A stretch of 63,182 nucleotides of DNA, the filler included, from Rozella allomycis CSF55 (Eukaryota), in the NCBI GenBank assembly GCA_000442015.1. It is 15 parts of 15 records of this genome, joined end to end, with 100 filler letters (N's around TTAATTAATTAA, not from the genome) between each part and the next. Parts side by side here need not be neighbours in the genome. Positions count along the whole stretch, not along the records: positions 33,459 to 38,949 come from KE560746.1; 14 more parts are not named here. One strand, 5' to 3'. Each line of letters opens with the position of its first letter. Positions within the stretch are counted from its first letter, which is position 1. The position numbers and the translations under genes were made by a program. This document shows, piece after piece, positions 15,058 to 59,006 of the stretch. The notes below the pieces were generated by a model. That model was not told the DNA's origin. It ran no database searches and worked only from the letters and a program-made list of their open reading frames with translations.

Positions 15058-16040
15058 TTATTCTGAGATTTCAGGAAATGTATACATTTCTAACGAACGC
15101 AAAAAGCTCTCGTGAATACAGTCCAAGGTCTTTGGAAAGTCGTCGAGAATGATTTGATTCTGATGTTGCCTGCGCAAGTTAGATTGCACAAGAAGTATTC
15201 GAGATTTAACTTGATCAACGGAATTTTGGATTTTATATCGTTCTAGCCATTCATTTATCATATTATCGTGACTATATGTGTCGCTCAATGTTACAAAATA
15301 CGGAATGAAAATCCCGCCTCCTTCGGTTATTATTTTACGTATGGTTTCAACAACCAATTCATTAAAATGTATCCCTTCCAATATTAAGGTTTTCCCGTCT
15401 TTTACACATTTAATCAATTCTTGTTTTAAGCCTATAATGATGAACAAATAATGATACCTTTAGCCACCAATTCACAGTCTTCGCGGAACGATTTCAAGGT
15501 ATCAATGTTCTTTCGTGTCCATAACGGCTCATAAATTTCACTCTATCAAAATGTTATGCGTATTACTTTTTAATTAGGTACAAATATTCTAATGTTACGT
15601 CTGTTTTAATGACGCTTGACAAGTTTAAACGTTCCGCCAACTGCATTGACAGCGCTGATATTCCTGCACATCCGGTAGAACAAATGGCTAAAACGGTTGG
15701 GACCCGATTTTGGTGAAACCGATTATACCAAACCTTATTTAATTACTGTGATAGCAGCTTGTAGTAAGCGAGAGTTTGAGGACGATAACCGAAATCTTCC
15801 AAGTATCTATGCAGTAGGTCTTCCAATCGTTTTTGTGTTATTTCAAATTCTTCCTTGTCAACTAGGAATTTCTTTATCCTCAAAGCAATCTCTATGGCGT
15901 GACTGGACTTTACCTTTGAAAAAACAGTGATTTATCTATACCAAAGTAGCAGTCAATGCCCTACTAATCAAGTATCTTGATAGTATATATGAATGGTCTT
16001 TGGAAAGAAATACTCTGACTTTCACGAAATCATATTTTGA
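15058..16040 (-). CDS. 2-phosphoglycerate-kinase-like P-loop protein with a degenerate Walker A (5' end near gap)
   Basis: SKYDFVKVRVFLSKDHSYILSRYLISRALT; AICSTGCAGISALSMQLAERLNLSSVIKTD; GKTLILEGIH. Confidence 0.75.
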
Positions 16041-16160: not shown

Positions 16161-17221
16161 AAATGAATTCGGAAGCAACTGTGACTGGCGCAGCAAGACG
16201 AGATATAATAATGCGCCAATTGTGTAAAAACTAGTATAAATAAAGAGTTTTTTATCGAATTGAATTTGTTTATTCATAACTTTCAGATTTTACAGTTATA
16301 ATACTTGAAATTCTTAGCCCTAAACCTGACCCTGAACCTTATTCAAAAAAGTGGATTTTTTGAAAAATGCTTANTGAAAAATACTTATTTAGGCATAATT
16401 ATTAAAAATATGTTGAAACTAGACGTTTTTATTCATGTGATTCATGAATTTCGTAAAAACATNCGTAAAAGCATCAGAAAATTTTTCCAAGTTTTCGTTG
16501 AGTTTAAACATTGTTTTGTTTGTTTCTTGCAACATTGAACTATATTCCGTGTCCTCTCTTTTGCTGTCCGCGTTGGCTAAAGCTACAAGACCATCTTTCA
16601 AAGATTCACCCATGTTCACAATAGCTTGTGAAAGATTAACTTTTTCCTTTTTGCGGTCCAATGAGGGGGTAGCTATTAATGGAGGTTCACTGGTGGGTCC
16701 AAAGGCATATGATGATTGCGATGCCATTTCATACAAATCGTATCCTGCTTGTCCAAGATCCGATGCTCCTAATCCATCCCTGCCTTCAAAGTATTGCACC
16801 ATAATATTCCACAAAGGTGGTTCAGGTCCAATGCTTCGATTTCCTGTTTTTGCCAATTCAGCTTTGTGTTTTTGATACGACGACTTTGCACTTTGCTGCA
16901 CCGAATTTGTTTTTCATTTGCTTGACGGTTACAGAGGAATAAAATGATTTGTTAAATTCTTCCAATATATTATTCCACGTTTTTTGAACCTTTTTGCGAT
17001 CTTTACTGTCTAAAAACTCATCGCAATATTTCTCCAATCGTAAATGCAAAAGAAGTTCAAGTTGTTCATCAGTCCATATATGATTTTTGGTTTGGGGGTG
17101 TCACTTTCATATTCATCACCTGAACGAACTCTTTTCACCATAAAAATAACAAGGGATAACTTTGAAGAAAATTTTATTTACAGGGGTAGATTTCACAATT
17201 TGCGACTTCTCAGTTGAAGTA
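16161..17221. mobile_element. Degenerate PIF/Harbinger element: nuclease C-terminus (+) convergent with a frameshifted Myb/SANT-like gene (-)
   Basis: Plus strand ...GAARRDIIMRQLCKN*; minus strand IWTDEQLELLLHLR...WNNILEEFN...VKQMKNKF...LAKTGN, broken by frameshifts near 17090 and 16900. Confidence 0.7.
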
Positions 17222-17321: not shown

Positions 17322-20280
17322 GTATTTCTGATTTTTTATCTCTCGGGTATCTTTATTTAAAGTATCCAAAGGTACGTTTAAATTGGTGATATCCGCAGCT
17401 ATAGTTGAATCTAATTCTTTTATCCAGTCAATATTTTCATCATCCAAGGTATAATCAATCTTAATTTTAGAAATTATTTTTCTTGCTCTTCTTCCTCTGA
17501 AAAATGCTTGAATCTTGGATGCGGCTTTGTGTTGCTTTTCAAGAATATGAAAGTACCTCTTTTTAAGAATAAATTTCCATCTTTGTTGAATAAAAATTAC
17601 CACTATTCATAAAGAGTCGAATTATTACTATTCTTTGTTTTTTTGAAAGATAACCTANTCTTGGATGCAGCTCTGTGTTGCTTTTCAAGAATATGAAAGT
17701 ATCTCTTTTTAAGAATAAATTTCGATCTTTGTTGAATGAAAATTACCACTATTCATAAAGAGTCGAATTATTTACTATTTTTTGTATTTTTGAAAGATAA
17801 CCTAAATGGTTCTGCACGATACCAACTTTGCAATCTAATTGCCGCCAGTTTCATTATTTCATTCTTAAGGTATTCTATGGTATCCAATGCAATAAATCTT
17901 TTAAGGGTGAATGTATCTTTTACTCTTGTTTATCAATGGACTTGCAAATATTAATGACATTCGTTAAAGACGATATGGACTTGTCTACATCATTCATTTG
18001 ATTATGTGAGACTTCATTTATCAATGTTGACTCAGTGGCATCTAAAATGTCAAAAGAAAGTTCCTTGAAGGTTTGACTCTTGTTGTTAAATTGCTGAACA
18101 ATCGTTAACGCTTTCTGAAAATATTTGACACAATGAAATGATAAAACATTTGACTTTACAGGATTTTGATTGTTTAAAATTTTCAAGTTTGGAAATAAAC
18201 TTGACAGAATGATAAATGAGTCATCTTTAACCATTATTGGATTTCTATTCAAGATGAGACATTCTAGTTTATTGCTTGCAATTAGGCCAGATATGTTATC
18301 AATGGTATCAATTAAATTATCAGCCAATGAAATAAATTTAAGATTTGGCAAGAAGCAATCCATCTGTTTAATTTTATTCCCATCCAAGTTGACCCTGGTC
18401 AATGAAAAATTGCAAACATTGAATTTTCTCTTGAGAATAATTTGAAAACCTTACTTTAAACTATTTCCTTTCAAATTTAAAAGGTTTAAATAAAAGGGAA
18501 TTTGAATTTCAATAATTTTGTTATAGTCCGCGTTTAATTGAAGCAATGAATATAGACTTGTAAGGTTTAATGCTTCTAAATCATTATTTGAAAGATCCAA
18601 AGCTAAAAGATTTGCATTCTTAATAGAAAATGATTGAATCTCTAATTTTACAAAGGAAATGAATAGTACTTTATTGCTTCTCAAATTCATGATAGTATTT
18701 GAACATTCTTCAGTTAAAGAAAACATGCAATTTCTAACATTAAGAAAAGCTGAATCCAAATGTAAAGATTCAATAGTGGAATTAATAAAGGAAGCGACAA
18801 TCGATTTTATTCCAGTTGAAACTTTAGAATTCAATAAATCAAAACAAATTAAAAATTACTTTTAATGAAATAAATTTCAACTTGTTTGTTTCATAATCAA
18901 AAGAAATGTTTTGGCCAAATATAATTTCAACTTTCGGGAAGAAATCAAGATAGTTCAAATTTTAGCAAACGAAATAAAATTACCATTGAAGAATTTGCGA
19001 GGAGTAAATTTTGATTTCCATCAATTGTTAAAACTTTAGTTTCTTTCCAAATATTCTGTTCAATTCCCACAAACTCTTTCAAATCATTAAGTTCTTTTTC
19101 TTTCTGCCTCCTTTCAGCTTCTTTTTGTAAATTTTTCATCTTTAATTTATCTTTTAAAATTTCTATCTCTTCATTAATTATCTTAATTTCATTCATTCTC
19201 AAATATTCGTCTTCTCTTGCCTGACGCAACCTTTTAGTCAATGCGTTATTCTTAAATGATTCATTGTCTATTAATAACTTCAATTCATCATTTTGCTTTT
19301 TTAAGGATGCTAGATGTATTTTATTCTTTTCAATTCTCTTTCCTTTTTCCTTTTTGAATGAATCGACTCTTGTAAAGTAATCTCCTAGTTTTTGATATTC
19401 ATTCCAAATCATTATAACTAAATTTTGATAATTTATCCTAATTTCATTCAATTTCCTTTTTGTTTTTTCAAATCTTTCAACTGAAACATCTATCTGAGCC
19501 TTGAGATTGATTATAGTGTCACTGAAAAGTTCCATTGACTGTTTAAATTTTTCAATGTTTCTTCGTTTTTCAGAGACGCTATAAAGTAAATTAGAAAGTT
19601 CCAGTTTTAGGTTTTCATATTCCTCAAATTGCGTATCATCACCATTCGACATTGATTTTTCATTTACTGATTCAAATAGAATATTAACACTATCAATTTT
19701 CAAATCTATTTCATTAATATTTGCAGATATCTTTCTTGTTTCAAGATCCTTCATTCGTTTCTCTAATTCGATTTCAGCATCTTTAAGATCTTCTAATTTT
19801 TCTTCCTTGGAAGTTTTTAATTTAACAGTGAAGAGATTCTTCAATTTCTGCTTCAAAGCTCCTAGAAACCTATTAAAAGTAAATTCATATACATTACGAT
19901 TTTCCTTCACTTTTTTCTGTTTTCACAATCTTTGGTGGCTCCTCTTCAATAAACTTAAAATCTTTATGTAAAATATTGTTTTCATTTTCTATCAGTTTGG
20001 ATTCTACATCCAAATCATCATTTGTCACATTCGCTTCATCAATGTCAAAAACCTTTCGAAATCTTTCAGCCCTCTCTTTGGCTTGCTCACATTCAATATC
20101 AACAATTTGATGAAAATCATTCAACGAAGAAAAAGAATCACTTGATACTTCCTCCACTTCATCTTCTCCCGTATCATCTTCATTATCCTGGAAATTCATC
20201 TCCCTTCTCGCCCGTTCAAGTTCTTGCAAGACTATCTCGTCCAGCTGTTCCTCTCCCAATATTTTCCCGTAACTCTGCAT
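17322..20280 (-). CDS. Coiled-coil, leucine-rich-repeat and IQ-motif protein (LRRIQ1/CEP97-like), 3' end in gap
   Basis: Acidic N-terminus, long coiled coil, LRRs (LALDLSNNDLEAL, LKFISLADNLI, LILNRNPI) and IQ motifs (AASKIQAFFRGRRARK). Confidence 0.75.
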
Positions 20281-21800: not shown

Positions 21801-23629
21801 ATGAATCCAAATATACAAAATCAAATTCTACCGCAAATAGAATCACAATTTCCTCTGATCCTTCCTCCGACATCTTCGATTAAAATGCCAGATGTTACAG
21901 AATTGAAGAAGATCACGGATAAAGTTTCAGATTTAACTGAGCCGATTTCAGAAGATTTAATTAAATCAATTTTACCTGAACTCCGCACACTTTCAGAGCA
22001 GTCCAAAGATAGATACCAGCTAGTTTATTCACAGTTCCAGAAAATAGAATCATGGGTTAGTTTGCAAATGAAAGGAGATGTGAATGAAGCATTACCAATT
22101 CTTGAAGCTGAACTAGAGGCGCGCAAGGAGCAGGGTAAAGACATAAACAATTAGTCATCAAGTAGATAAAAAGGAAAAGGAAGAAAAAGAAGTGAAAAGA
22201 ATCAAAGTTGAGATACCTTCAAGTTTCACCCAGACACAATCATTCCAAAAGATTGGGCAGAGTGGACCACAGATGTCGGCGTTTCCCATAACACCTGGAA
22301 CGGAATATCAGATATCCAATAATTCTAAAGTGCATTCCACGCCAACCAGGGTGGTGCCGAAAGCCCCTGATAAAATTATCACTAATTTTGATGATAAAAG
22401 TTCTAATGGATCTGTCGCGACCACTGATAAAATTTCAGTGGGAAGCACCGTCAAGATAAAATTTCTTCCACCAAAACCCAAACCAGAATCAAAAGTAAGC
22501 GTCGATTTTATGTTAGAATAGAATTCCAAGAACAAAGCAAATTTAAAGGAGAGAAGTTATAAAACAATTTCGCCTATTGAAGATGCAAGCAAACCTAAAA
22601 ATCAAATACCGATTTCTGTGTTTTGGAGTTATGCGGAACCATATTTTAGACCGTTGACTGAAAACGATTTGAAAAATTTGGAAACCAAAGTAAAAATAAT
22701 GAAGTTGATTAAATTGCAGATTACGGATAACCCAATGTTTAATGAAATAGCAGATGTGGATCCTAGTCTACAAACAAGATCAGGATCAGGATGGGGCATA
22801 AATGAATTGGAGACACCTGAAAGCCAGTCTCATGAAGGTAGTCCATCGGGAGTTAAAGTGAGTGATCAAGTTGTTGCAAAGCGTTTCGGTCCATTGACTG
22901 AACGATTGCTGGCAGCGTTTGTTGATGAAAGAGATGACGACCAAGAAGTTGAGATGGGTGAAGATGAGTCTATGGATATTGATGAAGAAACAATTGATGA
23001 TGATGATTCTACAATAAATGAAGAAAATGTGAGATCTGAGCTTTTGATTAACCAAATCGTAGATGAAGATGTCGATGTTGCAGTTCAAAGGGAAGATGAT
23101 GAAATCTGTGCAGAAATAAGGGCTATTCAAGCAAAGTTAAAAAAGCAACGTGCTGTTAATTCTTACAGAAGAAATAAATTGTTCGAAGCAGCTAGGCGTT
23201 ACATGGTCCTTCAAGACTTTTTACATGTTCTAGAAGAAATGGATAAGCAAATAGATCTTGGATTCACAAAGCGACTCGTAATGATTTAAGTATTAAATTA
23301 TAACTTAGAAAGCTAAAAAGAAAAAGAAAGCTACATCGTTTCCAATGAATTCCAAAGACAAACAGTCTTTGCAGCCAACTGTCAACATTAACATTTTGGC
23401 TGAAAAAAGAAGACTTTTGATTCGAAAGTTTAAAAATATCGTTCCTAAAAGCGAAGAGTTACTTTGTTTAAAGCATTCATTATTCCACGAAGAAGAAATG
23501 AAGACATTTGTCGAGCAAAGACTTGGCGAAACTAATGATCTTTCTTCTCTTCCTGAAATTCCTCTCAAACTACCTGCTCCCTTTCGCGTCCCCGTTGCCA
23601 TTTTTCCTGATTCGACCCTTAAAAACTGA
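21801..23629 (+). CDS. ADA3: SAGA/ADA histone acetyltransferase subunit Ada3 (Ngg1)
   Basis: NQIPISVFWSYAEPYFRPLTENDL; GPLTERLLAAF; REDDEICAEIRAIQAKLK; multi-exon. Confidence 0.9.
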
Positions 23630-24855: not shown

Positions 24856-26424
24856 TTATTGTGGAATCGAAGCATATTTGGTGATCGGGCAAATTGTATT
24901 ATACCACCCGGTTTTCACTTTTTAGGTGACGCAGGATACGCGTTGCAACCTGAATTGCTAGTTCCATATCCTGAAAGTGATTGCCAAGAAATATCTTTGT
25001 ACAATCATTACCATAGTTGCACAAGAATCGTGATTGATTGAATGTGCCTATGGAGACTTAAAAAATAGATGGCGCAAGTTAAAAATGCCATTGAATCAAA
25101 AAAGTTTTCGTGAGATGGCTAAAATTGTTGTGGCCTGTGTTACCCTGCACAATTTGATGATTGACTTTAAAGACAATACAGTTTTGGAAGAAGATGTTGA
25201 CAATGTGTTATACTCTGATAACACGCCAGCAGATATTGTTCATAAAGATATTCGACATAAAATTGCCGAGAGTAAACGTGATTCAATTAAAAAATAGTTT
25301 CAAGAACTAAAACTGAATAAATAGATTGTTCTATTTCCTATCTTCACGATCAAGCTTATTATTAGGGCGTACATGGCTTCATTTAAATTCTTTTGAGATT
25401 CCGAAATCAAGCTTATTAAATTATTTTGTGTTTCTAATATTTGCTTTGTCATGTCCGATTNTATTAAAAAATTGTTTCGAGAACTAAAACTGAATAAATA
25501 AATTACTTTATTTCCTATCTTCACGATCAAGCTTATTAATTAGGGCATACATGGCTTCATTTAAATTCTTTTGAGATTCCGAAATCAGGCTTATTAAATT
25601 ATTTTGTGTTTCTAATATTTGCTTTGTCATGTCCAATTGATTCTCGCTTAATTTTTCGATTTTACCTAAAATTGATTCACTTGGTTGATTTTGTATATTC
25701 ATGAAAGCAGATGTAAGTTTTTCAGATGATTGAACAAAGACATCAGTTAACTTGTCAATGGTACTCATTTTCTTTTTTGAAGATGATAATGGGATTGATG
25801 AAATAGTTCTGTGAGCGTTCGGAGTGTTACACCCTTCATGTATCTCGTTCAAAGGTCCAGACTCGTCACGTAACTCATCGGCCACTGTTGGACCATTACT
25901 CATGCTATCGGCGAGAATTGTTCCTCTTAACCCTATCCGTTCCTGAAAGACAGTGTTCATCATTTCCCAAAGTGATTCAGAAATATTGCGCGGTAAGTAT
26001 TTGTTTCCGGTTTCACATAAGTCCTTTTTGTGTGCCAAATAATTCTTTTTGAGCTTATGAAGTTTATCTTTCACCTGTTCTGGTGTCAATAATGAAGCAC
26101 ATTTAAGATTTAAAGCGCTTGTCAAAGTAATAAGGCTTTTGTTTCTATCGTGGTTGTTTCTAGCCTTTAATAATAAATTATTGATGTTTGACTCTTCATA
26201 TCGAATTCTTAATAGCTCAATTTCCATATCTTCAGACCACTTGGCCCTTGGAATTATGTTTACCTAATATTAAATAAAAAATTTTGGTTTTTTACCGGTT
26301 CCGTATCACTATTTTCTGCCTTTCTTTTTTTCATGTACTTCTACCGGGGTAACCGCTTTTCCATTGACGCTTTTGCTATTTGGAAAATTTGGAAGCGTCG
26401 ACGCCGGTTACTCCTACCAGGCCC
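24856..26424. mobile_element. PIF/Harbinger transposon copy 1: DDE_Tnp_4 nuclease (+, frameshifted) and Myb/SANT-like gene (-), with right terminus
   Basis: LGDAGYAL...YNHYHSCTRIVI/ECAYGDLKNRWRKL...ACVTLHNL; convergent KWSEDMEIELLRIRY...EQVKDKLHKLKKNY...TGN ORF; ends ...CCTACCAGGCCC then TTA (26425-26427). Confidence 0.9.
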
Positions 26425-29320: not shown

Positions 29321-31069
29321 GTAAAAAGGATCATTGGGCGCGTCATGAATTTTTTACTAGATGATGGGATTTCGGCTTTCTTTTTTCTCTTAATTGGTGT
29401 TTTTCTAGACATTAATTCGTCCTTTGGATCAGGAGACGGAGATGGGAGATCTAGTGGCTGTACTTGAATTTGAATCGGATCTTCTTTATTTAATACCTTT
29501 TCATTCGCAGTATTTTTGTTAGAATCGTGAAAAATTGTAGCTTTCCCTTTTGTCTTAGAGGGAGTTGCCATGTTTATTAAATTGTACCTCAGACTTGTCG
29601 ATTTTTCCTTTTCAGATTCATTCCTTCTTCTAGTTGGCTTGATGGAATTTGATGAATCAATTTCAGAGTTTTCTTTTATTTCACCGATTTCCTTTGATTC
29701 AATTTTGAGGACTAGTTTTTCTTTTCTTTGCTTTGATCTCTTTTTCAACGGCAAGTTTTCTTCCAACGGTTTTAATATCTCAGAATCAACTTTTTCTTCC
29801 TCTTTTTCTTTATCATTGGAAGTAATTTTCTCTTTATGCATTGGATGCTCTTTTTTAATCAGGTTAAATTAATATTTAAAAATATTACTTGCTTTTTGTC
29901 AACTTTGCTAGCTGGCATAGAATCTGTCTCAATTTTCGATTTTTTGAATATCTCTGGCAGGGGTTCGTCATCTTCCTTTGCGATGTTATCGGCGATCGGT
30001 AGAGGTTTAACGGCACCCGACTTTCTTTTCAACGGAGTCTCCAAAGTTTCTGACAAGGATGATTTTTCATTTCCAAAGGTTAAAGCAATGTCATCATCAT
30101 GCTCATTATCGGTCTCTTGTACTACGTGGCAAGATGAAGGTAAAGCTTCCTCAAGCTCAAAAATAGGTTTGGTTTTTCCAACAATCAATCCCAAAGCTGG
30201 GACGATCGTTTGATATTTTGTTTGATCCCATTTTTGTATTTTCCATGCATTAAATGTGTCCTCAATCCAAAGGTGGTTAACAATTTTAACATGACTGAAT
30301 TCTTTCGCTTTTTGGAATTTAACAGTCGTGGAGCTACATTCATCATTACAGTTTTAATTACTCATTACAAACTAAATGGGTATTTTCTGGCGAAAATGTG
30401 CCAGTGTAAGTCGCACCCATCTCATTTATCATGAATTTTATTCGTTCTCTTGCCATTCCTGTGTAATTTGATATAGAAATTATCAGCTTGTCCGCGTTTG
30501 GAATAATTTCGCCTCTCTTGGGATACATATGAATATGCATCTTTGGATCATGTTTAACACCATCTCTTAGAACATCAAATATCCAAAAAGTGCTGACGAC
30601 CGTTTTCCCACTTTGTAATGCCTTTCATGAAAATGATGTGTTAAAAATACCCTCTCGTAGTTAGTATCCAATCTAGAATCACATAAAACATGTGTGCTCG
30701 AATCAAAATCGTAAACAATTTGGCCTCCTTGACTTTCGATTGATTCTTGAACCACCCTTTTATCCTTGAAATTATCCCAATGATTAGAAAACAAAAAACA
30801 TCCTTTTAGTATATCCCCCTTTGGTGCCAATAGATTATTGTTAATTCCAGCTTAAATTTTATCGATGAAAACTGTTTACAGGTAGGTTCAAAATTGTAGA
30901 AACTGGTATCTAACAGCATCTCCACACTGATAGAGTCTTCAATCCATCGAAAAGACACTACTTTGGCGTTTCTATGTCTTTCCAAAGGATTCGTTGTGAT
31001 TATATGGGTGGCATCCTCTTTCATCATAATCACACTTCCCTTTAGTGTCTTAACTTGTTCTTCCAACAT
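29321..31069 (-). CDS. Multi-BRCT DNA-damage scaffold protein (Brc1/Rtt107-like), 3' end in gap
   Basis: Four N-terminal BRCT-like repeats (ATHII...VVSFRWIEDS; ISISNYTGMARERIKFMINEMGATYTGTFSPENTHLVC) followed by a charged linker. Confidence 0.8.
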
Positions 31070-33358: not shown

Positions 33359-33458
33359 NNNNNNNNNNNNNNNNNNNNNNNNNNNNNNNNNNNNNNNNNN
33401 NNTTAATTAATTAANNNNNNNNNNNNNNNNNNNNNNNNNNNNNNNNNNNNNNNNNNNN

Positions 33459-36400
33459 TGAAAAGTCGAATATAATTGAAAAGTCAAATGTTTTAGTAAA
33501 TGAAAAGTCAAATATTCTGGAAAAGTCGAATGTTCTGGTGATTGGAAAAAGCGGAAAATCATTATACGTCCAGTCAACCTTCAAAAACGTGGCAACAGTG
33601 TACTGCAGCCGCCAAACAAGCTGGCTGGACCTTGTGCGAGAGATCAAGAGCCACGGCATGCTAGTCTCTTGTACGCGCGGCAAGCAATTCAAGCCCAAGA
33701 AGAACCCATTGACGTTGTATGTGAAGAATGTGCACGAGGTATTGATGGATGCGTACGAGTCTAGTACTGTGTATAGTTTTGTGTATGGATTGATTAACAA
33801 TAATGGGTTTTATGATGAGAATGGCGAGTGGATTGCGTGTGAGGTGGGTGTTGTGTTGGGGAGTGAGAGGGCGATTCAGTGTGAGAGGCTGGGTGGGTGG
33901 TTGGATGTTGTTGTGGTTGGGGAGATGAGGGATGAGGAGGTTGGTGGTTTTATTAGGGATTGGTTGATGAGAGGCGTTAAAGACGTTGATAATATTGGAG
34001 ATGAGGGTGTGGAGAAGATTGTTGGGAAGATTATGCAGGTTTATTTGGGGTGCAAGTGTGGAATGAAAACATTGAATAAAATATTAAAGAGGCTTGTAGG
34101 TAGAATAAAGAGGGAAATGAGTTTTGATGAGATTATTGTTTGTGTGTATAATCTGTGTGAAAGGTTTATTGGGGATTCAGACGTTGCAAAGTCTAGAGAG
34201 ATCAAGAGAATATTTAGCAAGAGGGAAGAGATGAAGAGTGTTAGAGAATTGAATTTTGAAAAGTTGATGATAGACAATATGATAATAGTTGGCGAGAACA
34301 ACAGTGGCCGAAGAAGCCTCCTGAACGACCTTCAAATAGAAATATTCGAGTTGAATGAAACATTAAACTATCAATTCAAGCAATTCTCTAATCAAATAAA
34401 GAATATTCTTAATTGTAGGGGAGAAAAGATGGTTGTTGTGTATGATTACCAGATTAACGATTGGATATTGAATTGTGTGCATTTGTTTGTGAGTAGTTTG
34501 GATGTAAAGTATTTGATGAATGACGATGATTTGAAGCAGGTTGATGGTGAGAGGCTGGTGAAGAATGAGCTGTATTTTGTGTTTGTGGTGAAAAGTGTTG
34601 GAGTGTTTGAAGGGTATCCAGGGATTTTGAATGAAATGAGAGTTGTTGAATTTGAAGGAGTAAAGGATGTTAAAGATATCAGTGTTGTTAGTGAAGGGAG
34701 TGAAGGAAGAGAAGGGAGTGAAGAAAGTGATAGAATAAGTGAGAGTGTTATTCAGAGTAAATATTATTAGTGCTTCTATGTTTAGGGTTTAACAATTGCA
34801 AGTCATTTAAGAATTCATTTGATTTGTGGGTTGGATATAAACTATTCTTGAAAATAAAGAATAGAGAAATGGATAAAATAAAAAAAGAATTAGAAAGATA
34901 TGAAAATGGATTAAAAACAATAAAGAATGCGAATAAAGTAGTTAATGATCTAAGCAGAGAAGCAGAAGAACAAGAAAAGGAACTAATAATCAAACAAACA
35001 GAAGCAGATGAATCCTTAAAACTAATTACCTTTAAAATGAACGATTCATTAAACAAGCAAAAGATAATCCAAGAGTTAGTTTCAACATTGAACAAGGAAG
35101 AAGAGGATTTGAAGAAGAGGAGAATTGAAATTGAGAATGAGTTGATGCAAGTTGAGCCAGCTATTAGTAAAGCGAAAGAAGCGATTGGAAAAATTAAGAA
35201 TGAGAATTTGAGTGAAATTAGATCACTGAGATCGCCGCCTAGTTTGATTAGGGATTTGTTGGAAGGGGTTTTGATGTTGATGGGTATTTATGATACTTCG
35301 TGGACTTCAATGAAATCATTTCTAGGTAAAATGAATTGAGGGGATTAAATTAGGTAATTCAAGTGTTCAGGTTTTAATTAGGTAATTGATTTAGTTAAAC
35401 TCTCAAAGGTAAAAAGACGGTCAAGGATGAAATAATAAATTTCGATGCTAGGAACATCAACAAAGAAACAAGAAAATCTATAGAAAAATTAATTCAAGAA
35501 AAGAGTGAAGCATTCGACCCCATAAACATTAAACGATCATTCGTAGCTGCCGAGCCCCTAGTATTATGGCTCAAAGCGCAATTGCAATACTCGATCGTCA
35601 TTGAAAAAATAAAACCATTAGAAGGTGATTTAAACATGCTGAACAATTCACTGAATAAATCGAGAGGCGAGATTGAAGAAAAGGAGAGTGAATTGAAAAG
35701 ACTGGAGGCCGAGTTGGAAGAGTTGAGGGTTGATTTTAGTAGAAAGACTAGTCAGACGGAGAGTTTGAAGATAAAGTTGGGGGTTGGGAGGGAGAGGATT
35801 GAAAAGGCTAGCATGCTGTTGAGCAAGTTGAGGGATGAGCAGGAGAGGTGGAGTGTTGTTGTTGGGGAGTTGGAGGGGAGAGTTGGGGTGTTGGATGAGT
35901 TTGTATTTAAGCGAGTTGAATTAATCATCAAAGGGGAAGTGGGAGAAGAAGTAGAAGGAGTGGAAGGGGAAGAAAGTGTTGACATTGTAGAAGGAGTTGA
36001 AGTAGAAGGTGAAGTTGACAATCACAATATTGATACCCTTTCAGCAAGTAATAATCCAGTGGATGTGGCATTGATGAGATTGAATGAAACTATTTTGGTA
36101 AGTTTGATTAGAGATCCATTAGATATTTGCATTGATTATTTAAAAGATTATCAAATTATAAATTACAATGATTCTTCACTGTTGAGACAATTAGAATTAG
36201 CCATGAAATTGGGAAATAGAATAGCTATTAGGAATATGAATGAAATACCAAGTTATTTGGGTTATTTGATTTCTAATATTTCTAAAACAGATGAGATTAA
36301 ATTGTTGGATAAAGAAATCAAAATTTCTTCAGGTAGAATAGATCTATTGTGGCATAGTTAATAGGTACCTCAGATCTATAATCTAAACAAGGGTTTAAAT

Positions 36401-38949
36401 TGGTTTTAATTACAAAAAATAAAGAAATAAAATCATGTGAATCTATTTTGGATTGTTTAACGATAATTGATTTTAATTTAACGAGAAGAGTGTTGAGTAA
36501 TAAATTTCTAGATTTGATTGTGAATAAAATGAATCCAGAAAATCAATTGAAAAAAGAAGAAATAAATTTGAAGCAAAAAGAATTGAATTTCAAGTTGATA
36601 GAATTGGAAGATGAATTATTGAAGCAATTGTCAGAAACAAATGATCTTCTTTCAAATGAGCCACTTTTACTTTCACTTGAAGAGATTAAAATTCAGTCTT
36701 TGAATATCAAGAAAATATTGAATGAGAATTTGATTTTGCTAAAGAATCTTCAAAACCAGTTTATCCAATTTAAAGAAATTACAGACTTTGCAAGTAGATT
36801 TTATTTTGCTTGTGAGAAACTGAAATCATTCAATTCAAACTATTTTGTTTCTGTGAAGCAATTTGAGTTTGTATTGTTGGAAATTATTTCTGTTGTTGAT
36901 TCTAACTTTTTCAAAAGAGAATTTGTTAAATCTGTTTTTAGTATTCTGGCTAGGTTTGTTGTTGAAAGAGATCAATTAGCTGTGTATTTGTTTATTGTTA
37001 AAGAAATGTATGAGCAGGTTGTTAATCAAGATGAATGGGATTATCTCAAAGGTAAGCGAGTTGGAAATGTTTTGTGAAAGGGAATGTAAAGAAAAGTAAA
37101 TCTTATGGCACTGCTGATGGTAATTCAAATGGTAAAGTGAGTAATTCAACTATTACTTTATCAAATTCATTCTTTGAAAAGTATAAAGTAGAATTGAATT
37201 CATTGGCTAATTGTAAATTCTATTCAAAATTAAACTTTAATGATCCACTAAAATGGATTGAATGGTTAAAATCTTCAAATCTAATCTCAAACTTTCCATT
37301 TCCAAATTTAACGTAAATCACATTATAAAACCTTAAGAGATATTTCCAGAAACTACTTTTAATTAAAATATTCAAACCAGAATTATTCACAAATTATTTA
37401 AAGTCATTTATTTTGAATCTTGTTGGATTAAATAGTCTTCCTTGCTTTGATCTCAACTTGAATTCTATTTATAAAAATGGCTTGCCCATTCTTTGTTTTA
37501 CTTTTCCTGGTTCTGATCCATTTTCTCACATTAATTCTATTCCTAATCCAAATCCACCAATTATAGTAACGTTTCATTTTTGTTTTAATCTAGGTACCTC
37601 ATCTATTTTTTTACTAATCTAGGTACCTCATTTAGTAAATTTCTGATCTAGATCTCGCCAAAAATTTCTAAAAATAATCTATTCAAGATTCTTACAAAAG
37701 CAGTGAATGACAATAGTATTGTTTTGATTGAAAATATTCAATTTGTTGAATTCCAAGATGAAATAGTTTCATTCCATCAAAACAATCCATTATTAACTTT
37801 ATTCATGANATCTGGTTTCTGATTATTGCATTAAAGTTTCCTTTGAATCTACTTTTAACATTAAATTAAATTGTAAAAGATTACTCAATGGTAATTCACT
37901 TTAAACTATTCCAATAGATTACATTGATGCTAAAGAGTTGAATTTGAATAGATGTTTCAAAGTTGCATGGCTTCATTCTATTTTAATAGCTAGAAAATCA
38001 ATTATTCCAATTGGCTTCCTCAAAGATTATGAATTCAGCGATACAGACTTTAAAATAGCCATCAAAATAGCGTCAACTACAAATGAAACCAGTTTATTCA
38101 AAAGTTTACTAATATCGTCTGCTTATGGTCCTAAAATTGATAATAAAATAGATCTTGAAAAATTAGTTATTCTAGTCAACAGTATCTTCAATGCTAAAGA
38201 TTTCAAACTGGATGGGCTAAAAGCTTCGTCTGATGTGAATGTTTCAAGTATTACAGGTATTCTGCAGTGGTTGGATAATGCTGCAGTTGATGACTTTGAA
38301 GCAATGTGTTTGCCAGCGAATACACTTGTCATGAAATCTCTGTTGGATTTAGACTACACTTTGAAACTTTTGCGATCAGTAAATGAATTTAAATGTTTTG
38401 TTTCTGATTAGTTTTAAATCTGTGGTTGGTAGTAGCGATGGGTTGAAGAGTCAATGGCTGGAAATCAAGAGTCAGTTGGCCAAGTTTAGAAATAATGAGA
38501 CGAGAAGAAGCAGTGAAGGAGATGAAGCCTTTGTGGTAGAGTTTTGTGAATTGGAGTGCCAGTTTGGATGGGATTTGGTCGAGTTTGTTGACAAGCAGAT
38601 GGAGAATTTGCATTCTTTGCATGATGAAACTCCTGACAGGTAACACACAGTAACATAAATTAATTCTTAGGTAAATATAGCCCAATGAATTAAGGTAGCT
38701 GGCTATTATTCTGGGAAGGTCCATCGTCAATCTCTGACTACTTTAACAGCATCTACCAGAACATTTCGCATCAATACACTCTCCCAACCACCTCAAAGGA
38801 TCCAGTCACCTTGGAATTCATGTTTAATCCAGANAATTCATGTTCAATCCAGATTCATTCATCGCTGCAGCCTCACTCCTCACCTCCATCGACTCGCCAG
38901 TCGCATGTCTCTCATTCCAACCAACGCCAAACGCTATTCACATATCATC
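33459..38949 (+). CDS. DYNC2H1: Cytoplasmic dynein-2 (retrograde IFT) heavy chain, AAA3 to C-terminal region, highly divergent
   Basis: [10 protein letters not shown]; stalk/[99 protein letters not shown]. Confidence 0.92.
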
Positions 38950-46001: not shown

Positions 46002-48198
46002 TTAGACTATTGAAGGATAGGGATGCGAAACAAAACTTCCGCGTGAAAAAGATAAAGGCACGATGCATGGAAGGTAATAGCGTGTTATTTCAGTTAAATT
46101 TCGAGCATCCAAAAGCAAAACAAAGCTGGATTTGATATGAGAATTATAAACGATTGATACTATCACACCTTCATCTTCAATCTCATGAGGAACTCCTGTT
46201 GATGTTACACCCTGAGGCTGGAACATGACTTCTGTTTTTGAAGCAGTAAATGGGGAATGTTCAAATTCCTTTGCAATAAAAATGGGCTCGCCCGGATAGG
46301 AAAAATCTATATAAATTAGAAATCACCTGATACCTTCTTTCCAGATTACTGACTTTTCATCTTCTCCTTCCAAATCAATCTTTCGAATGGCATTCCAAAT
46401 TAAACCAACTTTTCCGCGATCTTCTTTGTGCAAAGAAAGACCATATACATAGCGATGCTTTAAGCCTTGTGTAAAGGGATTAATACATCCAAGTTCCATG
46501 GGATCAGAAGAAATGAATTGAAAATGCATGGTAGGAAAAGATGATAATAATCCACCACAACTCAAGTACTTGGCGCACTCAATTGATATATCTGAAAGGA
46601 TAAATCTTCGCGTAGCAGAAAAGGGTAAAGCACCCATAGTAGCTGGATCACGGAGATTCTTTATCGTTAAATAATCAAGAATTGAATCATCTTCATATGT
46701 ATTACAATCAACAACAAGGGAATTGTTAATCGGATCTAAAGAATCATATTGAGATTTGCTTACCATGAAAAGAGTTGAGAATCGAAAAGAAGAAACAAGC
46801 TTCCGACTTATAAATTGCTGATAAACACCCTTCATTCTTGTCAATTACATAGAACAATAAATCCTGGTCACCTTGATATTCAAGAATCTCTGACAAAGTC
46901 TTATTTCCCATAGAATAGTTTGATTCAAATGGTGCATTTTTGTACACATATGGAATCAATGGTATAATTATATAATTTGAAGTTACAGAGAAAGTATAGA
47001 GAAAGGAAGGCCTCTAAAATTTATCATTTTTAGAGCGTTTACCGCTAGAAAGGAAGCCACCAGTTTCCCGCCATAACGACTTTCAGATATTTCTCTGGTC
47101 ATTTTAATTATACGGTACTTGCAAAGTTCTTTCGATTTCACATCAGAAAAGTCCATTATTATTTGATACCTTTTAGTTGAAGTCAATATAAATTACATCT
47201 CCTTTGATGACTTATCGAATACACATGTCGAACTCATGACATTTCCTTTGGTATTAGGCACAAGGCTAGGAATATCATAAACTTTTTTGGCTTCCAAAGT
47301 CATTGGATCAACCTCTTGAACAACAGAAACACCATGACCAACAATGACTAATTTTCCTTGATCTCCTCGATAGGATCCCAATGGGAATTCAGGATACACG
47401 GCACCATTTAATACAACATACTCTGGATCAATTTCTACATAGCCCGACACTTTATCTTCTTTTGTAAAAAAGGACTTCAAATTAGCAAAAATCTTTGATA
47501 TCCAACCACCTGCAGGTAAAGGTAATTTTGTTTTCCAAAAAGGAGCAATCAAAAAATATCTTTTCTTGTTGACCATTGCAAACCTGCTTCTTGTTCGCAT
47601 TGTTTGCTGCTCCCTTCTTTGTATATCTCCAAATGAAGCCTTAAAATCATCATACAACCTTTTGTTGATAAGGCGGGATTGAAAATTAATATTTCCATCT
47701 TTTCGAAACTATTTAATTTTTCAAATATTTAAATACTTCAATTTTCAACAAAATAGGTAATGCATCGAATAAGTGTCCGACAGGAATAGTATCCTCCCTT
47801 AAGGTTCCATGCGATAACACCTTGCGAAAAGTATTTGTAAAGGGGATATCAAATACACCGGGATGCAAATGAAATAGAATACCTTATTCCTTTAACTAAT
47901 CATCGTTACCATTTAGCCATGAAAGAGGCCAATTTTCTTTTCTTTCTTCGCTAAAGTTGTTTTCAGGGGGTATTACAATCCTTTGGGTAAAGTCTTCAAT
48001 TGTCTGCAATGCTCCAACATGATTTTCCTCTTTAACATTCCAGCCAATATCTTTTGGTGAAAACTTTTTTGTTCGCACAGTGGAAGGAGGCGTCTCCATT
48101 GTTTTTACTTTGATACCTTTCTCTGGTGTTGTTTGCCGCGTAACAACTGACGATGAAGTTTGTTCCTCTGTTACCAAAATTGTTTCACTATTGTTCAT
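46002..48198 (-). CDS. Carotenoid cleavage oxygenase / RPE65-family homolog lacking its iron ligands
   Basis: GHLFDALP; EVDPMTLE; ELGCINP...HRYVYG; PGEPIFI; EDEGVIVSIVY...SFVLLLDARNLTEITR. Confidence 0.85.
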
Positions 48199-48271: not shown

Positions 48272-49290
48272 ATGAACAGTGGTCAGGTGAATTTTCTTTT
48301 TGAAACTGTGCAAATACTAAAGCACCTCTCTTACTCAGATGGAAAGATAACTTTTTCGACAGCTGATATAGCATACGATCTTATTAAACTAGAAGATTAC
48401 TCTCGAGAAAATTTGTACTGCCTGTGCTGTCCTTTCAATGTCAAACAAGGCGAGTTTGAAAAGTTGGGAAATCATCTGGGTGTTTGTCTATTTCAGGCTA
48501 ATATTTTGACCTTGAAAATATATGACTTGCATGATTTTCTTACGAATAGGCATTCTATCGCCAAAAGTAAGTTCATTAAAGAAAAAATACAAGGCATACT
48601 TACATATTTAAGAAAAATAGGTATATTAAAGCATCTACAAGATGTCTACTCAACTGTTCACAATAATTATCATGCCAATAAGATATATCTTGATCGTCCT
48701 ACACACACAATAGTTAAAGAGAGTCAAATTGACTCTAAACTACCAAATTTAGATAACGAGCACATTGATAGAATAATTAAAGTATTCATTTTTCTCAACT
48801 ATTTGAACTATGATCAGACATTTGAAAGCTTCAAACATACACGATATGAAATTGTTTTGCCAAACAATTTCAATTCTTACGACAATGAAAAAATTAGCAA
48901 GGAGCACATGTATCAATTAAATTTACTTTTTAATTAAGGGGCGAACTTTATCGGCTATTTTCGCATTATTTGATTGATAGCAAACAAAACACGAGTGATC
49001 ATTTGAATTATTTACAATATCAGCCAACGAAATGCTTATTTTGCAACTTTAATGCGCCAAATCTCATTTCACTTGGATTACATACGGTATTTTGTATTGC
49101 AAGTTGGCCAGAGCCAGAAAAGTTCATGTCATTCATTTCTTTCAGTGGATCCAATTTCAAAACCACAATAAAAGGAATCTTGCTGTGTAAAAGTTTATTG
49201 TAAATAATAACAGATGGAAGCAAAGTTCTTTCTTGCTATGGACTCAAAACAAACGTCTTTGGGAAATTTGAATCAGCCATAAAGAATCCT
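48272..49290 (+). CDS. Hypothetical protein
   Basis: Long open exon plus further short exons; contains CxxC...H...C (CLFC...LGLHTVFC). End approximate. Confidence 0.5.
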
Positions 49291-49328
49291 TCTAAACAAT
49301 TTATTAATACAAATAGTAAAATAAAAGT

Positions 49329-50239
49329 TTAATTAAACATGTATCGAATTATAAGCGCCCCAAATACGATTGCCGAAATTAATGGAATGCCTGCATGAAG
49401 ATTAACAGACTCGCTTTGACTTCCTGGTTGCGCCTTTGGTTCGGATAAGCCTACGCATTCTTCGGCGTTCAGAAAGCTAATAGACAATTTTTGCAGTTCT
49501 GGTAAAAGGACTGGCATTGTATTCGCCGTTTCAATGTGAATGTCATGCATGAGGAGAATCGGCGAAATGGGAGCGGCGGCTTTTATTTGCTGTAAAGTGC
49601 TATTAGTTGTTTTTTGCGGATTCAAATATGACCAATCCATTGAATCTACATTCCATAATATCATTCGATATCCTTGATTTGCAACAATATCAACCGTTGA
49701 TGAATTGTAAGCGCCGTAGGGAAATCTAAAGTATTTGACCTCGTATCCTTTTAAAATCATACCCTTAACGTACCTGTAGCCTCTTTAATAACCTGCCTAG
49801 TCTTGGAGAGATCATCAATGATGGCAGCTTCGCTCAAAGTCGTGTAGTTTATGTGCGACCAGCTATGGCTAATGATTTGATGACCTTCATCAATTATTCG
49901 TTTCGCGATGGAAGGATTTTGTTGCACTAGACTTCCAAGCACAGCAAAGGTGGCTTTTACTTTGCGCGCTTTAAGCTCATCAAGAACTTTTGGGGTTGAG
50001 GTCCTGATTTAAGGTAATGCATTATTTTTTTACGGATTGGGGCCATCATCAAAAGTTATTGCGATATTTTTGCTCCCTAAACAAACACTGAAAAGCCCTC
50101 TGTCATCTGGTGGATAGGCAGTGGAGGATGTGATCAATGCCTTGTGCGCACTCATTACCCTAGCAGGGACTGGAGGTAGTTTCTCCAAAGATACATTTGA
50201 AAGAAAAATAAGACACAGACAAAGTAGCAGGCGGGTCAT
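49329..50239 (-). CDS. CE4/NodB polysaccharide (chitin) deacetylase, secreted, with a C-terminal hydrophobic or GPI tail
   Basis: TFDDGP, HSWSH, FRFPYG, WNVDSMDW and LLMHD motifs; signal MTRLLLCLCLIFLS; two introns. Confidence 0.93.
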
Positions 50240-50413: not shown

Positions 50414-53400
50414 ATGGCCTACACGTCGAAAAACAAGCGAGGATTATTGGAGGACATGGTACTTTTGTCACGGATAAATGAATCTGAAATCAATGATAAC
50501 TTGAAGAAAAGATATGACGATGATCTAATATACGTAACCCAGCCGTTGTTTAATTACAGACATATATTGGCCCAGTTTTAATTGCCGTTAATCCGTTTAA
50601 AAAATTGAGTTACTTTACAGATAAAGAGATTGAATTGTATCAAGGTTCTGCTATGCATGAGAATCCACCACACATATATGCGATTGCTGACGCAATGTTT
50701 CGAAACATGCTGATTGATGAAGAAAATCAGTGTGTCATAATATCGGGTGAAAGTGGGGCTGGAAAAACAGAGAGTGCGAAATTGGTGATGAATTACATAT
50801 CCGCCGTTTCTGGGAAAGGAGGAGAAGCAGTCGAAAGGATAAAATATATTATTCTTGAAAGCAATCCGTTGCTTGAATCGTTTGGAAATGCAAAAACACT
50901 GAGAAACAACAATTCTAGTAGATTTGTAATTTGAGATTATTCGTTAAATAGGGGAAATATTTTGAGATTCTTTTCAATCGTGGAGGGATGCCTGTTGGAG
51001 GAAACATTTCAAATTTTTTGTTGGAAAAGGTGAATTTCGAATTATTTTTTAATCTAGTCACGTGTTGTTGGATTAAAGCAAGGGGAAAGAAATTTTCATA
51101 TTTTCTATCAAATGACAAAAGGCGCTAATAAATTTGAAAAGGAGAACTATGGAATGACAAATCCTGATTATTTTAATTATCTGCGTCAGAGTGGAACATA
51201 TGATGCGGATGGGATTGACGACGTTGCGGATTATCAGGAAGTTAAAGTATGGACAATATATTTATGCAATGTATTTAGAAGGCGATGGATATTTGTGGTT
51301 TTTCTAAAGAAGAGATTAGTTGTATTTTTGAGCTGGTTGCTGGTATATTGCATTTAGGAAACATTGATTTTATTGAACAAGGAAATGGAGCAGTGGTTAG
51401 AGATCCTGACAGTATGATTGTTGTGTATGATTTATAGCACTTAGCTTCCCATCATATTTGCTTGGGATTAAAGAAAATGAATTGTCAAAAAAGTTGCTTA
51501 GTAGAATAATGAACTCTGGCAGCAAAAGAGGAAGTACGTATGATGTTCCAATGAATGTTCAACAAGTAAAAACGTTGATTATTCTTGAAAGGCTACAAGT
51601 GCAAGAGATGCATTAGCAAAGGCTTTGTATTCTCGGCTATTTGATTGGCTTGTGAAGGCAGTTAATAGAGCAATGACAAGGAAAGAAAAATCACAAACTG
51701 TAAATCTTGGAGTTTTGGACATTTACGGATTTGAAATTTTTGAGCAGAATGGTTTTGAACAATTTTGTATAAATTATGTGAATGAGAAGCTGCAGCAAAT
51801 ATTTATTGAATTGACATTAAAATCTGAGCAAGAAGAATATGTAAAGGAAGGCATTAAATGGACTCCAATTGAATTTTTCAATAACAAAATTGTTGTTGAT
51901 TTGATAGAGGGAAAAGTAAGAATATTTTTTGTTGATTTTAGCGCCCTGTTGGAATCATGGGAGTGTTGGATGACATTTGCGCGACAACTCATGCGATTAC
52001 TGAGGGATCAGATGTGAAATTTGTACAAAAAATGACAGATGTTGTTGGCAGTAATCCACACTTTCAAGGCATGTCCACTCATTTTATGATTAAACACTAT
52101 GCTGGGAACGTTACTTATGAATCTGAAGGGTTTTCTGAATCAAACAGAGATAGTTTGTTTAAAGATTTGGTATTGCTAGTTCAAACAACATCAAAGTAAA
52201 CTACAATTATTTATCATTCAACAGAAATTTTATTAGAGATTTGTTTCCAGAGGACATTAATGAAGATTCCAAGAAACGACCAACAACATTCTCGTTTAAA
52301 ATAAGAAACCAAGCCAATGAGTTGGTAAAGGAACTAACAAAATGCAAACCTCATTATATTCGCTGCATAAAACCAAACGAAACGAAAAGACCCAGAGATT
52401 GGGATTCAAAAAGGTAATAAACAAATTAAAGATGGACAAGGGTTGATCATCAAGTTCGATATCTAAATTTAAAAGAAAATATAAGGATTAGAAGAGCTGG
52501 GTATGCGTATAGAGAAACATTTGAGAAATTTCTGAAAAGGTAAATAAACTTTGTATTCAAAAACAATAGATATGCTATTTTAACTAGAGAAACATTTCCG
52601 TGTTGGAATGGAAGTGTAAATGATGGCATAAATCATATTATGAATTCAGTAAAAATGGAAAATGATCAATTTCAAATTGGCTTGACTAAAATATTTATAA
52701 AGAATCCCGAATGTGTAACAATTTAATTTTGAATTTATGAATAGTTGTTTCTGTTGGAAGAAACTAGAGAGCGCAAGTACAACGCCTATGCGAAAATAAT
52801 TCAACGAGCATTCAGAAAATACAAAATGAGAAAATATTTTCTTGAATTAAAAAAGAAATGTAAACAATTAATCTCTCTTTTTAAATAGCATATGATATTG
52901 TTTATGGCAAGAAAGAAAGACGACGATTTACTTTAAACAGAGAGTTTGATGGCGATTATCTTCACATTCCAGAAAACCCGATAATAAAACAATTGATTGG
53001 GAAACAAAATGTTTTGTTTGCTGACAAAATAATAAAATACGATAGAAGGTTTCGACCACAAGAAAGGGAATTGGTGGTGACGAATGAAGAGATCTTCATC
53101 ATTGGCATAGAAAAAGTAAAAAGTGGACCTTCAAAAGGAACTTTTACTAAAATTGTAAAGAGAGAAATCCCAATCAAAACTGTTACGCAGATAATCACAA
53201 GGTAATCATCAAATATTACTTTAATCAGTTCAAAATGCGACGATTTCATTGTTTTACAAGTTTTTAATGACTATGATACTCTGTTTGAAAATGTTTGTAA
53301 AGTTGAACTCTTATCAGTTCTCAGCCAGCTTTACTTCAATTTAACCAGCAAGCCACTACCCTTGTCATTCAGAGATTCGTAAAATCATTTTCTTGCTTAA

Positions 53401-56003: not shown

Positions 56004-56509
56004 TTACTTTATTGGCATTCCCAGTTCCCATTGCCAAGATTTTTCAAATATTCGATCTTAAACATGAACGTTTAAATGTTTTACTGAATCGATAGCTGTT
56101 ATGGCCCACTGTAGTAATCAGTACGGTACCTTCGATTTTGTATTTCTCTTTTCTAACTTCCGCGTAGCTTCCTGGTATGACTTTCGGTGTTTCATCAGGC
56201 TTTACATCAGGCTTTGGGTTTCCATCTTTCTTTAATAGCAATTGTTTGTTTCTAAATCCTCCATAGGCATCTTCATTCTGTTTAATTTCATCAATCTTGG
56301 TTTCCTTTTTAATCAAATCCGCATACTACATTGTTATAAAACATTGTTTTTACGTAATGGCAGTGTTCAGGCACAATGTTTGATATTGGCTCACTGATAG
56401 GCGAGGAGATGTCACGCAATATTATCATTAGCATTTGTATGAAATAGGTCTAATATCTGAATAACGGCGTCTAAAAACTTACAATCATGACTTTCATGTT
56501 TGTTTTCAT
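56004..56509 (-). CDS. Small spliced hypothetical protein, possibly secreted
   Basis: Short hydrophobic N-terminal exons plus a 90-aa Lys-rich exon; boundaries approximate. Confidence 0.4.
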
Positions 56510-58205: not shown

Positions 58206-59006
58206 TTAGCACCTTCTTGTTGTCTCATAAAATGAAAGTTTAGCCAATTTAGACATGAAACTAAGATTCGTCAAAGAAATGGCGTTGCCTGGTTTCTTCC
58301 ACCCTTCGAGATACGGTATTCTTTCTTCCAAGAAAAATGACCTCGTGTATGATGATGGTACTTTACCATTTACTTGGAACAAGTAAAAGTATAGGGCAGC
58401 TTCACCTGCAGCAACTACTCTTTGACTATTGGAAAAAGTGAATTTTGGATCTTTTCTGGAAATGTCGCATTCAACATGCTTTCGATAATTTATTATATCT
58501 GAAACGCTTACAGAGCCGTTTCTGTCTCCATGTGATATCAAATCTTCAATCATAGAAGGTTGAGCGTTAACACAGTCATAATTATATTTCTCAGAAAAAT
58601 CACCTCTCGACAAAGACACGTCGTGCTCCAAAGCCTTCTCACTTGTCCTTCCCGGTACATTTAAGAAATCAAGATCTAGGTATTCACCGTATGTCTCATT
58701 GTTTCGTGCCATTAAATCATAAGCCCGGTTAACAATTCTTCTTCCAAATGTTTTATCCACATTATAAGCGTTAAACATAGCATCAACCATCTGTTGTCTT
58801 GTAATGTTCTTACCGTCCCTTGGCAAAAAACCATGATTGGCCATTGAATTCAATCCGGGACACGGAGAACGGACTCCTACACCTCGTGGTCCATTTCGTA
58901 TATATTCCGGGCTTAAATAATTTGGTTCAACTTGATTACGGGTGTTATTACCCTTTTCATACCATAGACCAAACATGATTAAACCTACAGCAAAAATCAA
59001 CGTCAT
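58206..59006 (-). CDS. Heme-thiolate peroxidase (chloroperoxidase / unspecific peroxygenase, short type)
   Basis: RSPCPGLNSMANHGFLPRDG (PCP thiolate ligand) and EHDVSLSRGD; N-terminal hydrophobic signal or anchor; intronless. Confidence 0.93.
   Translation of the reverse strand: MTLIFAVGLIMFGLWYEKGNNTRNQVEPNYLSPEYIRNGPRGVGVRSPCPGLNSMANHGFLPRDGKNITRQQMVDAMFNAYNVDKTFGRRIVNRAYDLMARNNETYGEYLDLDFLNVPGRTSEKALEHDVSLSRGDFSEKYNYDCVNAQPSMIEDLISHGDRNGSVSVSDIINYRKHVECDISRKDPKFTFSNSQRVVAAGEAALYFYLFQVNGKVPSSYTRSFFLEERIPYLEGWKKPGNAISLTNLSFMSKLAKLSFYETTRRC

Follow-up and report, generated by a model that had tools for sequence, protein, structure and literature searches.

Arrays of abutting minimal introns in a dynein-2 heavy chain gene of Rozella allomycis

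Introduction

How did an intron arise, and how is it removed, when it reads from end to end as three complete introns set directly against one another? The question is raised by positions 35326–35408 of a 63,182-nucleotide (nt) stretch of the Rozella allomycis CSF55 genome (GenBank assembly GCA_000442015.1), here called the window, in which an 83-nt intron interrupts a gene for the C-terminal fragment of a dynein-2 heavy chain. R. allomycis is a flagellated relative of the fungi, sister to the Microsporidia, and a fungal parasite. The window consists of 15 joined parts separated by spacers, each made up of 44 N, a 12-base linker with stops in all six frames and another 44 N (as at 1695–1794 and 33359–33458). 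Genes on opposite sides of a spacer are not linked, and the gene in question sits within a single contig (33459–38949, 5491 nt). An original prediction, made from the DNA of the window, had described the intron as three back-to-back units of about 28 nt and had proposed that a spliceosome tuned to introns of this size removes longer ones stepwise, at internal AG|GT points. According to published work, putative R. allomycis introns are about 30 nt long (PMC6349667), and the lowest intron median in a set of fungi including Rozella is 29 bp (PMC8042348).

Results

Anatomy and net excision of the 83-nt intron

The reported feature at 35326–35408 (plus strand) was confirmed as real. Three GT..AG units, a1 (35326–35353, 28 nt), a2 (35354–35381, 28 nt) and a3 (35382–35408, 27 nt), lie on the plus strand with zero bases between them, GT being found at 35326, 35354 and 35382 and the AG dinucleotides ending at 35353, 35381 and 35408. 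Each is of ordinary intron size, as had been claimed: 36 single introns curated in the window measured 25–32 nt, with a mean of 28.2. The upstream exon (34786–35325, +) lies within the microtubule-binding region and aligns to residues 3098–3244 of 6rla_A (human DYNC2H1), as well as to residues 3–70 of 6rzb_C, a 149-residue microtubule-binding-domain chain; it ends one base into a split codon (phase 1). Alignment of the downstream exon (35409–36332, +) to 6rla_A starts at residue 3246, the split codon corresponding to residue 3245, and the prediction that removal of all 83 nt leaves a product colinear with dynein-2 thus holds. The downstream exon starts with GTA, which places AG|GTA at both ends of the array, and is a 100% match to RKP18729.1 (R. 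allomycis CSF55), a member of the same protein cluster as EPZ35822.1. Human DYNC2H1 is the top PDB match of the gene, and the Pfam domains MT, AAA_lid_11 and AAA_9 were found on its public protein model.

Several comparisons support the exactness of this joint. The public Rozella model gives a continuous HMMER alignment across it, with no gap, and our own spliced model (described below) is likewise gap-free here against a profile of 31 full-length dyneins; in the metagenome locus L004, from another eukaryote, the site is intronless and the homologous peptide reads straight through. Three single GT..AG excisions at the site keep the frame and avoid stops, and the conserved residues survive only with 35326–35408, the other two (125 and 152 nt) removing conserved residues. 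An in-frame stop occurs in all seven products in which the intron is partially retained, including that in which a3 alone is kept. Both EPZ35822.1 and RKP18729.1 treat 35326–35408 as one 83-nt intron. A metagenome search for relatives of the locus yielded four loci, all from distant eukaryotes; in three of them an intron lies several codons upstream of the site, and the fourth is intronless there; no Rozella orthologue was present among these four.

Three further arrays in the same gene

Three-frame reading of the contig led to the recognition of three more compound introns on the plus strand of the gene: b (36333–36391; 59 nt, phase 1), made of units b1 (36333–36364, 32 nt) and b2 (36365–36391, 27 nt); c (37566–37651; 86 nt, phase 0), made of c1 (37566–37593, 28 nt), c2 (37594–37622, 29 nt) and c3 (37623–37651, 29 nt); and d (38640–38698; 59 nt, phase 2), made of d1 (38640–38670, 31 nt) and d2 (38671–38698, 28 nt). 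All six internal junctions in the four introns read AG|GTA. When the four arrays and the single introns were removed, with NN inserted at an assembly gap to keep the frame, an open frame of 1629 residues was obtained, scoring 741.8 bits against a profile of the C-terminal 2100 residues of 31 dyneins, each at least 3900 residues long, out of 150 listed proteins. In the profile alignment joints a, b and d are gap-free at the top posterior probability, joint d falling in a conserved W..WEGP stretch; the exons on either side of c fall on neighbouring segments of the profile, close to a gap of 6 residues.

The excisions differ in how tightly they are fixed. At d, the 59-nt excision is the sole solution that keeps the frame and is free of stops; at c there are two, one of 86 nt, which keeps the flanking coding sequence, and one of 122 nt, which removes 36 further coding nt. 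For b, the 35-nt excision adopted by both public models (36357–36391) scores 733.7 bits, 8.1 below the two-unit version, which we prefer without regarding it as certain. Taking all four arrays together, 20 of 20 partial-retention products contain in-frame stops.

EPZ35822.1 and RKP18729.1 handle only the first of the four arrays correctly. Both carry 8 extra residues at b and skip the exons around c (approximately 37213–37917); at d, EPZ35822.1 adds three spurious residues and then terminates, whereas RKP18729.1, a partial model, goes no further, so that the conserved C-terminal stretch is missed by both. No longer public protein holding the exon 37341–37565, and thereby spanning array c, was found, a negative result that is weak evidence.

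Splice signals and predicted folds

A splice-signal matrix was trained on the 36 single introns, with 8 bases taken from the start and 14 from the end of each. Units a1, a2 and a3 scored 10.3, 12.7 and 9.5, and the ten units of the four arrays ranged from 5.9 to 14.0, compared with 10.0 ± 2.6 (minimum 4.4) for the single introns, each left out in turn, and 2.1 ± 4.6 for 2437 GT..AG decoys of 25–32 nt. By these signals the units appear competent as introns, each with a putative branch region.

Predicted folding of the arrays was weakly significant for b, with a z-score of -2.08 and three of 200 shuffles folding equally well, and not significant for a, c and d (-1.32, -1.30 and -0.59). In the minimum-energy folds a1 is predicted to pair with a3, and the two junctions of c to pair with one another through an 8-nt palindrome, which would loop out the middle unit. 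The GTAC-type junction motif contains a perfect 8-nt palindrome across AG|GT, found at 37591–37598, 37620–37627 and 36362–36369.

Similarity between units and variation in unit number

Among 946 pairs compared, c2/c3 were the most similar (76% identical) and c1/c2 ranked sixth. The 7 of 29 positions at which c2 and c3 differ all lie within positions 10–23, sparing the first 9 and last 6 bases (P = 0.002 for random placement); since both of the 5' ends so compared are internal sites, this suggests constraint on them. Within arrays a and d, unit interiors resemble one another no more than those of randomly paired introns do (ranks 115–684 of 946), with AG|GTA kept, and diverged interiors with intact junctions are what selection on internal sites would give. 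Units b1 and b2 have a common 8-mer at the same offset, and b2 and c2, which are 1.2 kb apart, agree at 14 of their first 16 aligned bases. Counting both strands, the 63-kb window has three occurrences of an 11-mer found at 36362–36372, all of them at the b1|b2, c1|c2 and c2|c3 junctions, where about 0.03 would be expected by our own arithmetic; its presence at both introns indicates that units were also moved or copied from one intron site to another over a distance of 1.2 kb.

Unit number at intron a is not fixed. A metagenome contig of run X5, which belongs to a different study and is labelled as a different organism, spans 35268–35708 and contains a1 to a3 together with a fourth unit of 29 nt, which stands behind a2 with AG|GT on both sides; a3 is one base longer, and the total is 113 nt. 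Compared by eye with a2, the extra unit matches in its first 7 bases, a 7-base block and its last 4 bases. Two other contigs (X1 and X2) differ or break inside a2. No RNA run was listed among the sequencing runs that carry the locus, and the contigs of the four runs compared have the introns in place. The difference between three units in the window and four in X5, along with the likeness of neighbouring units, means that the arrays behave as small tandem repeats in which the repeat unit is a whole intron.

With respect to origin, the pattern is that of arrays made by tandem duplication, in that neighbouring units are paralogous (those of c, b1/b2 by their 8-mer, and a2 and the extra X5 unit by eye) and copy number is polymorphic. 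Near-identical copies at unrelated genes, as in introner-like families, were not seen when the 11-mer was searched in the 63-kb window. Nor do the arrays have the structure of stwintrons: the units abut exactly at AG|GT, and each unit, as well as the outer pair of sites, is complete before any excision. We infer that the arrays arise and change size by duplication and loss of whole units.

The exon downstream of intron a contains a G-rich, low-complexity Val/Glu/Gly repeat at 35850–36030, within a 34–36 kb bin with a GC skew of 0.54. This repeat also varies in length, X5 having 9 additional bases at 36017 and the X1 and X2 contigs diverging at 36000, which suggests a slippage-prone locus.

Ordinary introns and the distribution of arrays

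The 36 single introns were curated on both strands of the window from reading frames and, in several cases, domain logic. All end in AG, and their first four bases are GTAA in 27, GTAT in 7, GTAC in 1 and GTGA in 1; a further single intron (22495–22521, 27 nt) was resolved later. In the dynein gene the ordinary introns, all on the plus strand, are at 34757–34785 (29 nt), 37052–37080 (29 nt), 37313–37339 (27 nt) and 37891–37917 (27 nt). Compound introns thus make up 4 of the 8 introns resolved in this gene and none of the 33 resolved on other contigs; the chance of all four falling in the dynein gene, by our own arithmetic, is 70/101,270, or about 0.0007. The expectation that longer introns would carry AG|GT at every unit boundary is borne out in all four resolved long introns, but does not extend across the window, where no intron on another contig is compound. 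Among the 41 resolved window introns, no clear long intron lacking unit structure was found.

Chains of abutting GTA..AG units of 24–33 nt were also counted, with 200 dinucleotide shuffles as the null. There were 13 chain starts, against 3.2 ± 1.8 (maximum 9) in shuffles, and chains of at least three units numbered 3, where the shuffles averaged 0.02; four of the 200 shuffles had one such chain and none had two. One of the three long chains (38640) is the two-unit intron d followed by coding sequence that fits the pattern by accident. Four of the 10 maximal chains correspond to the real arrays, and the other 6 are false: those at 15890, 26240 and 52507 are a single intron beside pattern-fitting coding sequence (26240 being ambiguous, as its 24-nt second part is in frame), and those at 17347, 28870 and 59695 were rejected for want of a matching gene context.

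A crude gene finder called long 'introns' of 36–157 nt, and those that could be resolved proved to be ordinary introns of 27–28 nt plus exon (18428–18454, 30334–30361, 53202–53228 and the above-mentioned 22495–22521); the call at 50926–51057 is a 26-nt intron, a 78-nt exon and a 28-nt intron. Kept outside all counts were 9096–9168, 18822–18970, 964–1106, 17032–17181, 16540–16586, 16896–16932, 49236–49367, 56326–56482 and 38379–38448. The last of these is a 70-nt intron of the public dynein models (+), whose first 33 nt form a complete GT..AG unit and whose other 37 nt have no GT start; here the spliced protein aligns poorly and is 17 residues shorter than the profile.

As at 35409, the exons that follow the ordinary introns 15914–15941, 26264–26295 and 47170–47196 (all on the minus strand) start with GTA, giving AG|GTA at the 3' boundary. 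Such boundaries could seed in-register duplication or confuse gene finders.

Other features of the window

The window also contains a gene for a heme-thiolate (family-2) peroxidase (58209–59006, minus strand) and one for a 1886-residue DUF3638/DUF3645 protein (3446–9103, plus strand). A ciliate or otherwise alternative genetic code was ruled out by long open frames under the standard code and by the match to Rozella, and Rfam and tRNA scans of the window found nothing.

Discussion

What is established here is the anatomy of the arrays, the exact net excision and the variation of unit number between samples; by their signals the units appear competent. On these grounds, the 83-nt intron can be read as three complete minimal spliceosomal introns placed head to tail and separated by zero-length exons, every unit being equipped with a 5' site, a branch-like region and a 3' site, spaced as in ordinary introns. 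Excision from the 5' site of one unit to the 3' site of the same or a later unit would leave only whole units, so every order of removal would end in the same mRNA, and this convergence makes stepwise splicing likely. Given the narrow size range of ordinary introns, pairing of nearest sites, unit by unit, would be the most natural route, and removal may proceed mostly in this way, probably 5' to 3' during RNA synthesis. On balance we favour this array of mini-introns with stepwise use of its internal sites, judging from the sequence that it is somewhat more likely than not.

A number of observations weigh against it. The 76-nt intron of Encephalitozoon cuniculi is reported to be spliced better than the mini-introns of that species (about 80%, as opposed to under 20% for the short ones; PMC6349667), which makes removal of a longer intron in one step credible. 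Units b1, b2, c2 and c3 start with GTAG or GTAC, seen in 1 of 36 single introns, and have lower-tail matrix scores (5.9–7.8), and some internal 5' sites may therefore be weak or unused. The predicted folds of a, b and c loop out the middle, only that of b being notable; at b, the 35-nt excision of the public models also keeps the frame and loses by just 8.1 bits; and with fast turnover of units, repeated duplication rather than selection could keep the junctions intact. Finally, the arrays are limited to one gene, and a genome-wide rule is consequently not established.

Much of this evidence would equally serve a route in which the outer 5' site pairs with the branch region and 3' site of the last unit, the whole intron leaving at once and the internal AG|GT junctions being relics of recent tandem duplication, with RNA pairing between units perhaps shortening the distance. 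Besides the microsporidian precedent, this possibility, to which we give roughly half the credence of stepwise removal, draws on the status of 35326–35408 as a single 83-nt intron in the public models, on the atypical GTAC start of the internal units b2, c2 and c3, and on the unit-number variation between samples, which attests to turnover recent enough that intact junctions need not reflect selection. The folds that pair a1 with a3 and the junctions of c, looping out the middle, could assist such a reaction, but the z-scores of a, c and d are unremarkable. What speaks for use of the internal sites instead is that the interiors of a1 to a3 and of d1 and d2 have diverged like those of unrelated introns with AG|GTA kept at every junction, that the differences between c2 and c3 avoid both unit ends, and that the resolved introns of the window include no clear long intron without unit structure.

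A different account of origin, compatible with either splicing route, would have one type of mini-intron spreading, through such processes as reverse splicing or gene conversion, and landing directly behind an existing 3' AG, so that abutting pairs arise at several sites. The restriction of the junction 11-mer to b1|b2, c1|c2 and c2|c3, the agreement of b2 with c2 despite their separation, and the fact that all three units of the 11-mer type are non-first units fit this account; however, only three copies exist, all in one gene, with none at any other resolved intron, the c2/c3 pair and the pair formed by a2 and the extra unit adjoin as local tandem duplication predicts, and an identical picture would result if two introns lying close together in a single gene exchanged sequence. 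We think spread by insertion rather unlikely. An artefact of assembly, in which collapsed or duplicated reads produced the repeats and the true intron has a single unit, might be entertained in view of flaws elsewhere in the contig: the contig lacks 26 nt at the N at 37809 (37807–37809), where 26 extra bases in other assemblies restore the reading frame, a 20-nt direct duplication with N at 38815–38834 is absent from run X6, and the X1 and X2 contigs break at the intron itself. It is nevertheless highly improbable. That only one unit is genuine is largely ruled out by the X5 contig, which comes from another study and spans the whole intron with the three units and a fourth; moreover, a single unit of 27 or 28 nt breaks the frame, the fit requiring a net excision that equals 83 modulo 3 and leaves the conserved residues in place, the same exon joint is present in both public assemblies, and the units differ too much from one another to be read duplicates.

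A bolder extension of stepwise removal is that the Rozella spliceosome handles only introns of about 25–32 nt, that longer introns are recursively removed chains of whole mini-introns, growing and shrinking in unit quanta, and that units of the 11-mer type spread by inserting directly behind existing introns. We regard this extension as doubtful.

The principle of recursive splicing is not new, having been published for zero-nucleotide exons in Drosophila (10.1101/006163), for a zero-length exon in SPNCRNA.445 of Schizosaccharomyces pombe (336 nt; 10.1101/226894) and for one in BOT1 of Cryptococcus neoformans, where 375 nt are divided into 210 + 165 (10.1101/224170). The background to the original prediction accordingly needs amending in that recursion is not confined to very long animal introns; its description of stwintrons as nested rather than abutting stands. 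Ratchet-point recursion resembles the Rozella arrays in having a 3' site directly against a 5' site, with excision regenerating a usable site. It differs in scale and make-up, since the introns involved range from hundreds of bases to tens of thousands and are split into large parts, whereas the Rozella parts are 27–32 nt long, number up to three or four, are paralogous and vary in number; the known recursive cases also have proof from RNA, and the Rozella arrays are described here from sequence. Fungal stwintrons (PMC9024468, PMC7138796, PMC5639578) are likewise complex intervening sequences of more than one U2-type intron and are removed by consecutive reactions. In stwintrons, however, the outer intron has its donor, branch or acceptor broken up by the inner one, which forces the order of removal, whereas the Rozella units abut, no element is split and any order would work.

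Microsporidia provide a comparison in size, as they too have mini-introns, of about 23–30 nt, together with rare introns about three times longer (PMC6349667). Those longer introns are described as single units with an extended branch-point motif, and the available extract of that paper reports no internal AG|GT phasing in them. In tandem-duplication intron gain, as in the arrays, a short segment carrying splice signals is duplicated, neighbours are alike and copy number differs between populations. Background to such gain includes the AGGT-duplication model. Unlike tandem-duplication gain elsewhere, the Rozella case involves duplication of a whole intron in register, with no exon sequence, the product being a whole-intron array. 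Repeat expansion has been reported to create introns in Cryptococcus (PMC2395259). No prior description of abutting mini-intron arrays, in Rozella or elsewhere, was found in the literature searched; what is new is that minimal introns serve as the segments, with as many as four in a chain, and that these segments are paralogous, vary in number and are clustered in one gene.

Conclusions

A practical consequence of these arrays is for annotation: the mis-modelling in EPZ35822.1 and RKP18729.1 shortens a conserved motor protein, and gene finders for this clade should permit zero-length exons. If the units are spliced singly, they would be the smallest-scale form of recursive splicing, occurring in a neighbour lineage of the Microsporidia, with intron length quantised by a length-limited splicing machine; were the bolder extension correct, the locus would display intron gain by a mechanism still at work, and the differing unit numbers of the samples would be its visible trace. 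Whatever the splicing route, the arrays and the difference between three and four units show that tandem duplication of whole introns is happening now, which is relevant to the long-standing problem of how new introns originate.

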